Shown piece by piece: positions 49,331-51,878 of a stretch of 64,000 bases of DNA. The notes beneath the pieces were generated by a model, which saw nothing but the letters and a program-made list of their open reading frames with translations, ran no database searches and was not told the DNA's origin. The translations under genes were made by a program, and so were the position numbers. The stretch is taken from NCBI GenBank assembly GCA_004022145.1, contig RCNU01000009.1; one strand, 5' to 3'. The first letter of the stretch is position 1; the number at the start of each line of letters is the position of its first letter. Source of the stretch: Paecilomyces variotii (taxonomy: Eukaryota).

Positions 49331-49757
49331 GTTTACGACAAAGGGAAAACTGGCATGAGAATGGTATGACAATGTATTCATTGATCTAGCTAGCGAGAAT
49401 TATGGACCACCTGATAGGTGCTGCAGTTTATCTCGTCGACGAGATGTGGGGTATCTTATGATCTTCCAATTGTTAGTCAAGGATTCAAACTCAAGATGAG
49501 TAGTACAGCAAAGTGGAAACAAATTCGAATCAGTTCTCCAAGATGAATAAGATTCTTCAACGTGTAACTCAGTAAGAACACAGCGAATAAAGAGTTCATC
49601 ACGAAAGAATATGCAACGAGAATGGAACAAAACTTACAATCTAGGAGGAAAACGTCCGCTATTGCAAGGTAAGTTCCTAGCGAGACCGAAAATGTCAGCG
49701 ACATGACTGAATAAGCGATCCTCTGCAGGATGATGAAAGATATAAAGGCATATCATC

Positions 49758-49920
49758 TATCTCAGGCTTTGCGCCCATCTGTTAGCATGCGCACTTCCTT
49801 CTGTTCAGTACTGGAATACGACATACCTCATTAAATCAGAATTTTCAGTGTATACGTTCATACCCGGAACACTGTTGGTGTATCCGGTTCAAACAGTGTG
49901 AATAGTGTTCATCATTTGAA
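49758..49920 (-). ncRNA. snR51: Box C/D snoRNA snR51 homolog (25S Um2729, 18S Am100), split by an internal intron 49826-49767
   Basis: C box ATGATGA 49915-49909; TATTCACACTG before D' TTGA is complementary to 25S CAGUGUGAAUA; after splicing, CTGATTTAATGAG|C-CTGA is complementary to 18S GCUCAUUAAAUCAG. Confidence 0.88.
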
Positions 49921-50045
49921 AGATGATAGCCATATACTTCGGGGAATCAGGGCTCCTTGTGCATATGAGACAGTACCTAGTGACATTAAGGTCAGTTCGA
50001 GTTCGAATCATACAATGATATCAAAAATGCGAGTCATGTTGATAA

Positions 50046-50180
50046 TCAATCAGGTGACGAGTTCTCAACAAGCATTTCGCCTCCCCAGCACCCGCAAAGT
50101 TTGTACGCTTTGCTTTTCATGGATGAGGGCAGATGAATCCGTTCTGTCCGCCCGTTCGTTCATGGCTTCTTCATGAAGGG
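50046..50180 (-). ncRNA. snR70: Box C/D snoRNA snR70 homolog (18S Cm1639)
   Basis: C box ATGAAGA 50174-50168; ACGGGCGG before D' CAGA is complementary to 18S CCGCCCGU; extra element GTACAAA pairs with the adjacent UUUGUAC; D box CTGA 50053-50050. Confidence 0.85.
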
Positions 50181-50295
50181 GTCGCGTGGTGAGGTGTGGG
50201 AATGTTGATAGATAGAGAATAAAAGTACCTATTAGCGTCGACTGTTAGTTACTGCGAAATCAATGGCATGGGACAAATGATATCGTTGTAGAGAT

Positions 50296-50393
50296 TGGAT
50301 CAGACAAGGCTGAAACTTGATTTATTGACAGGTTCCACATGGATCTTAAGATTGAGGAATGCCTTTCGCATGTCATATGAGTCATCACAAAAG
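50296..50393 (-). ncRNA. snR41: Box C/D snoRNA snR41 homolog (18S Gm1126)
   Basis: C box GTGATGA 50388-50382; 14-nt AAGTTTCAGCCTTG is complementary to 18S CAAGGCUGAAACUU and precedes D box CTGA 50303-50300; position upstream of snR70 and snR51 matches the yeast cluster order. Confidence 0.88.
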
Positions 50394-50555
50394 GGGGGCG
50401 GTGAGAATGAACAGCGAGGAAAAGTAAACGTACCTTTTACAAATTGTATGATGAGCAAGATGGAGTACGCGATAGGAATATTATTCTAAGCCTAGTTTCG
50501 AGGTATTAGCAGCTGTCATACCAGATAACGACGCAACCACAATTGTATGACGGAA

Positions 50556-50639
50556 GGCATCAGAGTAATTCTAGAGTTTTTTTTTGAAGTCCTTCATGGT
50601 CATAGGATTTTGTGGATAAAAAATTTTTCATCACTTGAG
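50556..50639 (-). ncRNA. Box C/D snoRNA, U45/SNORD45-like (18S A equivalent to human Am159)
   Basis: C box GTGATGA 50634-50628; 12-nt CTCTAGAATTAC is complementary to 18S GUAAUUCUAGAG and precedes D box CTGA 50563-50560. Confidence 0.82.
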
Positions 50640-51878
50640 AAGAGTATATAAAATAGAACGTATGGACTTACCATTAATGAATAACAGGTAGTGTCACAGC
50701 TATGCAGCTAGTAGGTGAGAATATCAAATATAAAAGGTCATGACGCCTTCCAGGAAGGGCGACATCAGCCCTGCCGTGCCTGCGGCAGATATTTTGCTGA
50801 GAAGAATTAGTGTGGGATGGGAACAAAAATTTATAGACGCGTAGGCAGCGCTACGGAGCGCGCTTGTTACCTTAAGCGAAAGTTGAGCCCCACTTAGGTA
50901 GGTCCGATGCATTGACCAATGCGAACGAGGATCTCCAGGTTCATGAATTGAACAACTGCTGGTTCATCTGTGTTGATTTCCTCCACCTCCAAATACTACA
51001 TATATCTACTCTAAGGAGAGGCTCCCTCAAACTTAAATGAAGAATTTCGTAGTATGAGTGTCCGGAAAGGATCCATTTATCACGCACCACTGGAAAGAAT
51101 CAGCCAGCGGACGATGATCGCATGGATATTACTATCTCTAGGAAGTACTTCTATCAAATTGTATTCTTTCAGGATGGGTAGTCGGTCATACGCCTAATAT
51201 ACTTCTTGAATCCTGAAGTCGTTGGGGAAGTTATTATTAGAAGCAGACTCACAGGAGCGCTAGATGAGAGTGTCTCAAAACGTCCCCATCACGTTAGAGA
51301 TATTTGCAAGAAATTCCGTATACAAAGTTCAATTTCAAGGGAATGATTAAGCCTAGCGCCATCCTGAAGATTCGCGCACTGAATGGGTTGGACATATGAG
51401 TACTCGGATTCACAAGTGCATAATGACCTGTAAGTCAAAAGTCCCGCCGGTAACTATGTATGTACCTTGAGGAATTGACACTCTGCTTCGCTCGAATACA
51501 CTTCACTTGTACGGGGTGCTCGTTGCTTTCTCATCCTTTTACTGCAGCTAACTAATGACCATAGACGAGCTGCCTTCGTTACTTCCTGCTTTTATACTGG
51601 CGAAGCTCGCGTCCCTCATATAGACGTCATGGTTTCCCGGGCTGACTTTTACGACACACACTCTAAGGGCTTTTCTGCGTCAATTTGACGTCGCTTTACA
51701 GTGTCGCAGGTCCCCCTGATTGCATAATCCATACGCGGCCTGGGATGTTAAATATCTCAAGCTGTCTCCTTTATCGCTCAAATCAAAACTGACCGGTATT
51801 GTTGCAATAGCATAATTTAGCCCACCAATGAATCATATATTATCCAATATTACCCCATTTCGTCCGATATAATCCAAT

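Follow-up and report, generated by a model that had tools for sequence, protein, structure and literature searches.

A single snR51-type gene in the window, by which we mean the whole stretch of 64,000 nucleotides of Paecilomyces variotii DNA that was analysed, probably makes two alternative, mutually exclusive guide-RNA assemblies, as judged from its sequence. In the shorter one, box C (49915-49909) would pair with a proximal CUGA (49839-49836) to give an RNA of about 85-90 nt. In this RNA the D' guide would target the 25S U equivalent to yeast U2729 for methylation and the D guide, ACACUGAAAAUU, the U2724 equivalent, five nucleotides upstream on the same rRNA strand. In the longer one, a nested intron of 60 nt would be removed at its first AG and box C would pair with a distal CUGA (49765-49762). 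A 7-bp external stem is expected to support this pairing, giving an RNA of about 100-104 nt whose D guide, starting with the shared CUGA, would be directed to 18S Am100. The two uses of the proximal CUGA exclude each other in any one molecule, because the tetranucleotide lies either in the terminal kink-turn with box C or inside the Am100 guide duplex. We infer that core proteins bind the proximal CUGA, that both mature RNAs accumulate and that methylation of the U2724 equivalent requires this locus, although the genome may carry another guide for it. A box C/D snoRNA is usually credited with a single box D and no more than two guides. Should both forms exist here, three rRNA sites would be served from one locus, and the choice among them would be coupled to nested and alternative splicing.

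The gene is a box C/D unit of the snR51 family, placed on the minus strand between Afu_455 and Afu_294 within a non-coding snoRNA host gene (about 50830-49400). Its features, with the two neighbours, are the following.

50392-50298, minus strand: Afu_455, from the Rfam scan.
49976-49971, minus strand: GTACTG, predicted donor, the 5' splice site of an outer intron with a lost exon ('intron III' of Luo 2013).
49927-49921, minus strand: 5' strand of the external stem, ATCATCT, which pairs with 49758-49752 and so brackets the whole unit.
49915-49909, minus strand: box C, ATGATGA, from the Rfam alignment; TGATGA is invariant in the 39-sequence alignment.
49904-49894, minus strand: D' guide TATTCACACTG, directed to the 25S U equivalent to yeast U2729, matching the Rfam snR51 consensus.
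49892-49889, minus strand: divergent D' box, TTGA; tTGA is kept in the alignment.
Between D' and C', minus strand: variable hairpin.
49861-49855, minus strand: C'-like box, ATGAACG; aTGA.cg is kept in the 39-sequence alignment.
49852-49840, minus strand: guide TACACTGAAAATT, directed to the 25S U equivalent to yeast U2724; the Rfam snR67 consensus has an identical D guide.
49839-49836, minus strand: proximal CTGA, putative box D of the short form and first four bases of the Am100 guide.
49839-49827, minus strand: 18S Am100 guide CTGATTTAATGAG, completed by C 49766 after splicing, matching the Rfam snR51 consensus.
Up to 49827, minus strand: remainder of the 18S guide, TTTAATGAG.
49826-49767, minus strand: nested 60-nt intron ('intron B' of Luo 2013), GTATGT...CTAAC...AG, from RNA contigs.
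49785-49781, minus strand: branch site CTAAC of the nested intron.
49768-49767, minus strand: first 3' splice site AG of the nested intron.
49765-49762, minus strand: distal box D, CTGA, after the AG and C 49766.
49758-49752, minus strand: 3' strand of the external stem, AGATGAT, which pairs with 49927-49921 and contains a second AG (49758-49757).
49606-49527, minus strand: Afu_294, from the Rfam scan.

The locus is probably the snR51 member, the last one, of the fungal snR41-snR70-snR51 host-gene cluster, and both the cluster layout and the lost exons agree with the description given by Luo 2013 (PMC3596301). The neighbours Afu_455 and Afu_294 may be snR41 or U55 types, and a further Rfam match, Afu_304, lies elsewhere in the window. 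The predicted outer donor GTACTG stands immediately 3' of a splice-site AG (49978-49977). An AG directly followed by GTACT is found twice on the minus strand, at 50229/50228 and 49977/49976, as expected for juxtaposed introns without an exon between them, which Luo 2013 describes. The first intron of the host gene (50670-50491, spliced in contigs of runs X1, X6 and X8) holds a box C/D unit of its own, GTGATGA...CTGA, at 50638-50558 on the minus strand. It matches no Rfam family at gathering score and gives a weak, false-looking snR51 match of 25.7 bits; by position, it may be the counterpart of Neurospora CD17 or of the U45-type snoRNA that Luo 2013 places in 'intron A'. The middle intron (50228-49977) has no Rfam match, and a snR70-type snoRNA is expected there from the published cluster order. 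A candidate ATGAAGA...CTGA unit was spotted by eye at about 50200-50050 on the minus strand.

No Rfam family reached its gathering score for the unit between Afu_455 and Afu_294. In a scan with an E-value threshold, snR51 (RF01214; CD_6 in snoStrip) matched with 28.5 bits (E 2.2), under its gathering score of 44; the model derives from intron-less yeast sequences, and box D is missing from the genomic match. The alignment takes in box C, the guide TATTCACACTG and CTGATTTAATGA. Membership of the family is seen in the boxes, with a box C of the form RUGAUGA near the 5' end and a CUGA near the 3' end, and in the guides, where the consensus identifies the U2729-equivalent D' guide and the A100 guide, the latter reaching box D after splicing. 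The same scan aligned snR67 (RF01177) to 49919-49834 with 23.4 bits (E 0.084; gathering score 55). The last 16 positions of the snR67 consensus before its tail, ACACUGAAAAUUCUGA, are identical to 49851-49836 of the window, and the rest of the alignment is poor. As a whole the RNA falls outside the snR67 family, being below 55 bits and devoid of a G2619-type D' guide, and the guide alone is common to both.

It is this guide that points to a second D-side target. The proximal CTGA is preceded by ACACTGAAAATT, and 16 bases here are the same as those that close the snR67 consensus at its 3' end, D guide and box D together. Identity over the 16 nt of ACACUGAAAAUUCUGA means that guide, two-base spacer and box D all stand in the snR67 register. 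A functional methylation guide needs at least 10 contiguous pairs with rRNA, and the target lies opposite the fifth nucleotide upstream of box D. For the guide at 49852-49840, 12 pairs plus one G-U are predicted from the window's own complement. The D target of snR67 is 25S-2724 of S. cerevisiae (Canzler 2018, PMC5824354), and the fifth-nucleotide rule would thus pick the U equivalent to yeast U2724. A preliminary description of this DNA had reported the proximal CTGA with its preceding guide, and the sequence is exactly as stated there. It had also named U2724, the snR67 site in yeast, and that target is borne out by guide identity and the published snR67 target. In the shared complement, the U targeted by the D' guide lies 5 nt downstream of the first target, in agreement with the spacing of 2724 and 2729 in yeast. 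The same spacing is found in Neurospora, between 26S-Um2682 and Um2687 (Liu 2009, PMC2780460, Table 1).

We looked at conservation with a pattern scan of metagenomes for the D' guide, a gap of 35-65 nt and the Am100 guide, which gave at least 116 loci. The matches listed comprise 93 distinct sequences including the window; one of them (L017), which has no box C and looks coding, was excluded, and counts over the remaining 92 take no account of shared ancestry. As the pattern demanded both other guides, loci without the Am100 part are invisible to it. It also fixed 10 bases of the D' guide, and the proximal CTGA is present in every locus by design. Conservation of this CTGA is uninformative on its use as box D, since the Am100 guide fully accounts for it. 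The class of loci with a Um2724-type guide was defined by a regular expression.

The guide described in the window recurs in this set. Among the matches listed, the 11-mer before the proximal CTGA is exactly that of the window in 38 of the 92 distinct loci; it shows one change in 1 locus, two changes in none and three or more in 53, most of the last being A-rich before CTGA. In the single-change locus the altered base is the nearest but one to the box. Such a lack of intermediates between exact copies and sequences with three or more changes argues for selection where the guide exists. In an alignment of the 39 guide-bearing loci among the matches listed, box C, the D' guide, tTGA, aTGA.cg and the Um2724-type guide are all fixed, and the distance from guide to CTGA is constant in 39/39. 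Variation is seen in the hairpin and in the spacer between C' and guide, which differ both in sequence and in length, and also in the intron and in the flanks. By a coarse measure, the variable parts of the window are at most 0.69 identical to those of any other locus among the matches listed. Clustered by global identity, the 39 guide-bearing loci fall into 27 groups at 0.8, 13 at 0.7 and 2 at 0.6; this measure is too coarse for lineages, so these groups are no count of independent origins.

These counts bear on the idea that the guide is a chance resemblance without function. A 15-mer match with up to two mismatches occurs once in the window against 0.21 expected, and at least one was present in 17 of 100 window shuffles, which by itself would leave some room for chance. 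However, the match is exact and in register, it adjoins a second guide for the same rRNA helix and, among the matches listed, it is unchanged in 38 of 92 loci with no intermediates. The conservation data contradict a chance resemblance, which we reject as highly improbable.

The distal box D is likewise widespread. After the Am100 guide, GT...AG and then NCTGA are found in 72 of the 92 loci among the matches listed, and in 73 when L060 is added, where a GC 5' splice site opens a GC-AG intron that is followed by NCTGA. In 14/92 the Am100 guide is contiguous with box D, as GCCTGA, GACTGA or the yeast-like CTCTGA, and 4/92 end at a contig edge after the guide. One locus (L108) keeps both D-side guides and has CCCGA in place of the distal NCTGA. 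Another (L061) carries the Um2724-type guide without any intron: guide, proximal CTGA, Am100 remainder and distal CTGA are contiguous there, and the two-box arrangement therefore needs no intron. Both box D arrangements appear to be under selection.

RNA evidence was taken from assembled contigs of four public runs (X1, X4, X6 and X8) over 49400-50900; their depth, holes and ends carry no information on mature snoRNA ends. No loose contig end lies near 49833 or 49759, an observation that does not speak against RNA ends at these places. Run X4 gave a single unspliced contig from a close relative, with 21 substitutions in 1501 nt. In the spliced contigs of X1, X6 and X8 the exon ends at 49827 in all three runs, so GTATGT is a real 5' splice site and directly borders the Am100 guide, as the preliminary description had held. 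That description had also predicted a junction in which AATGAG is joined to CCTGAG, and this junction is present in one run: in X6, a single contig joins 49827>49766 (skip of 60) and restores the distal box D, with a depth of 54.4 against 81.1 and a shorter side of 23 letters. The joint 49827>49756 (skip of 70), found in X1, X6 and X8, uses the AG at 49758-49757 and deletes the distal box D. Of the proposed choice between spliced and unspliced RNA, the splicing after the Am100 guide is real, but the choice seen is one between two 3' splice sites, since the commoner junction takes an acceptor AG lying 10 nt downstream of the first one and thereby loses the distal box D.

The second acceptor is itself conserved with the guide. 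Among the matches listed, the 14 nt that follow the distal box D contain an AG in 34 of the 35 guide-bearing intron loci and in 11 of the 37 without the guide (Fisher 7e-10, a value that ignores ancestry). In the window this AG is the acceptor most often seen. As one strand of the external stem includes this AG, it could be conserved for either of two reasons, and the intron-less L061 has an AG at the same place after its distal box D.

It is tempting to propose that splicing sets which guide RNA forms, the Am100 or the Um2724 one, although from sequence data we hold this further step to be rather doubtful. Splicing at the first AG before particle assembly would let the distal box D and the external stem win, yielding the 18S Am100 guide. 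Assembly on the nascent exon first, or use of the AG 10 nt further on, would make only the short 25S Um2724 RNA possible. The CUGA would then be box D, guide and possibly also the branch site of the outer intron, and intron gain would have been the event that let the new guide evolve. The data are compatible with a switch governed by splice-site choice or by whether assembly or splicing comes first.

The prevalence of the box-D-deleting junction could also mean that the short form alone is produced at useful levels in this species, with the Am100 guide, its intron and the distal box D decaying or seldom used, and A100 unmethylated or guided elsewhere. This would agree with its presence in 3/3 spliced runs when the restoring junction is in one, with the fact that Table 1 of Liu 2009 (PMC2780460) gives no 18S A100 guide for Neurospora, and with the CCCGA that replaces the distal NCTGA in L108. 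Yet the Am100 guide, the AG followed by NCTGA and the external stem are retained in very divergent loci, and the relative in X4 has 3 of its 21 substitutions within the 60-nt intron and 0 in the 116 nt of snoRNA and stem. Molecules processed into snoRNA are, besides, under-represented in contigs of long RNA, and rare variants are dropped from them. We consider loss of the long form quite improbable.

Further upstream, X1, X6 and X8 share the joint 50434>49976, other contigs retain 50234-49949, and there are contigs with the first juxtaposed intron removed and the next retained as well as contigs with both removed. Two other products were observed. A joint 50434>49676 (X1, X6) takes exon 2 to 49676, skipping 757 nt with three snoRNAs and part of the next exon. 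One X6 contig extends from exon 2 across the intron to precisely the 3' end of Afu_455 (50298, minus strand), where 24 untemplated A (T on the plus strand) follow; it looks like an oligoadenylated, 5'-extended intermediate of snoRNA processing.

The two predicted forms differ in how their ends would be held. The 18-nt flanks outside box C and the distal box D form a duplex with an energy of -17.2 kcal/mol, compared with a mean of -4.5 in 200 shuffles, 0 of which reached the observed value. Among the matches listed, the stem is reached by at most 5% of shuffles in 54 of 84 loci, and guide-bearing loci have a mean stem energy of -11.95 vs -4.90. Such a stem argues for the distal box D and, with the junction 49827>49766, gives the long form good support. 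The short form would have no equivalent stem at its ends. What speaks for it is its canonical guide, the complementary way in which U2724 guides are distributed among snR67, snR54 and snR51 in published work, the snoStrip annotation with the proximal CTGA as box D, and Neurospora CD6. CD6 is a 76-nt cDNA cloned from size-selected small RNA and termed exon-encoded, listed without northern confirmation in Table 1 of Liu 2009 (PMC2780460). For the 36 intron-bearing loci without the guide among the matches listed, the predicted short form is within 4 nt of 76 in 21 and the long form in 0, a fit to the reported length of CD6.

A strong stem around the distal box D is also what one would expect if only the long spliced snR51 matured, directed to U2729 and A100. 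In that case ACACUGAAAAUU would be a docking pairing near U2729 or a folding chaperone that causes no methylation, and the proximal CUGA would be guide sequence only, perhaps with a part as CUGAU branch site of the outer intron after removal of the inner one. The stem does bracket box C together with the distal box D, 73 of 92 loci among the matches listed have NCTGA after the intron, and the element and the D' guide pair with the same rRNA stretch. Extra pairing beside guides is, moreover, established in yeast (van Nues 2011, PMC3116282; Aquino 2021, PMC8053091). However, the complements show that the element overlaps the target of the D' guide by 7 nt, which means competition rather than addition. 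Its register to CUGA is constant in the 39/39 guide-bearing loci among the matches listed, while the other side varies in length, and it equals the proven snR67 guide letter for letter with the same spacer. Saccharomycotina and Sordariales, which have the U2724 guide elsewhere, are reported without a copy in snR51 (Canzler 2018, PMC5824354), and the 76-nt Neurospora clone fits the short form. Accessory pairing alone, which the preliminary description had kept as its fallback, is less likely given the invariant spacing to CTGA and the variable other side; we regard it as unlikely, but as the most serious competitor of the dual assembly.

If the dual assembly is accepted, a likely history can be suggested. 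The intron may have displaced the true box D, and the CUGA inside the Am100 guide may then have been adopted as box D. The A-rich spacer before this CUGA would next have been free to become a Um2724 guide, the one carried by snR67 in yeasts.

Each part of this arrangement has some precedent. The U2724 target is reported for snR67 only in Saccharomycotina and for snR51 in some Pezizomycotina, where it is given as the 'D-box target' of snR51 in Onygenales and some Dothideomycetes with a low snoStrip interaction score (ICI 0.36; Canzler 2018, PMC5824354). These RNAs have the same guide and the same proximal CTGA as box D and belong to the same family as the RNA in the window. The passages of Canzler 2018 on snR51 mention no Am100 guide, intron or second box D, and do not name Eurotiales. 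Luo 2013 (PMC3596301) places 'intron B' of the Euascomycete snR51 between the antisense element and box D in cluster III, and attributes to this cluster an 'intron-intron-intron' structure with lost exons and stepwise splicing. Intron position, lost exons (50229/50228 and 49977/49976) and the products of stepwise splicing are the same in the window. Luo 2013 treats the distal box as the sole box D, whereas the window has the proximal CTGA besides. Neurospora CD6 is the snR51 homologue, is called exon-encoded and, like the gene in the window, has a D' target at the U2729 equivalent (26S-Um2687), and its 76-nt cDNA fits in length an RNA ending at the proximal CTGA (PMC2780460). In the same source, unlike in the window, CD6 has no assigned D guide, and the U2724 equivalent (26S-Um2682) is guided by CD49.

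Yeast snR67 (RF01177) shares with the window the 12-nt D guide, the 2-nt register and the box D for Um2724, but it is a separate gene and the remainder of its RNA is unlike the window. Pairing of yeast snR67 and snR51 overlaps weakly (Aquino 2021, PMC8053091), and the D' box of snR51 is divergent yet functional in yeast (van Nues 2011, PMC3116282). Alternative boxes within one snoRNA are known from yeast U18, snR48 and snR13, in which two overlapping D' boxes give two snoRNPs per snoRNA (van Nues and Watkins, PMC5389607). The likeness lies in a single snoRNA with alternative boxes and two particles with different targets, which for this type is demonstrated by mutation and primer extension and for the window is proposed from sequence, conservation and junctions. 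In U18, snR48 and snR13 the boxes are internal, shifted by 1-2 nt, and serve one guide on one target region, whereas those in the window are terminal, 14 nt apart after splicing, and would serve separate 25S and 18S guides with an intron between them.

Earlier papers already report the intron (Luo 2013), a short clone and its location in an exon (Liu 2009) and the U2724 target of snR51 (Canzler 2018), and with 'intron B' the split Am100 guide is published too (PMC3596301). Our literature search, which covered passages of main texts, found no statement of overlapping, mutually exclusive box D choices, of three targets at the locus or of an alternative acceptor that removes box D. It also found no relevant paper on ribose-methylation mapping in filamentous fungi. 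Two published annotations of one fungal gene choose different boxes D, the proximal CTGA with Um2724 in one and the distal CTGA after the intron with Am100 in the other. In practice, this explains why the Am100 guide escapes homology pipelines in Pezizomycotina. If both forms are made, the locus would also exemplify a guide moving between families, being carried by snR67 in yeasts, snR54 in Sordariales and snR51 here. Were the switch true as well, it would be a simple case of splicing controlling rRNA modification, and the selection of splice sites could adjust methylation in both ribosomal subunits from a single gene.

Two further observations concern the hairpin between D' and C'. On the minus strand, the end of the D' guide, ACACTGTT (49900-49893), is complementary to AACAGTGT (49876-49869) in the internal hairpin region. 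Such pairing could mask the D' guide in P. variotii, and the other aligned loci are without it. Absent from the window, TGTAACGA or TGTAAACGA is found in the internal hairpin loop of many loci, both with and without the Um2724 guide, L002, L004, L006, L013, L016, L024 and L033 being among the carriers.
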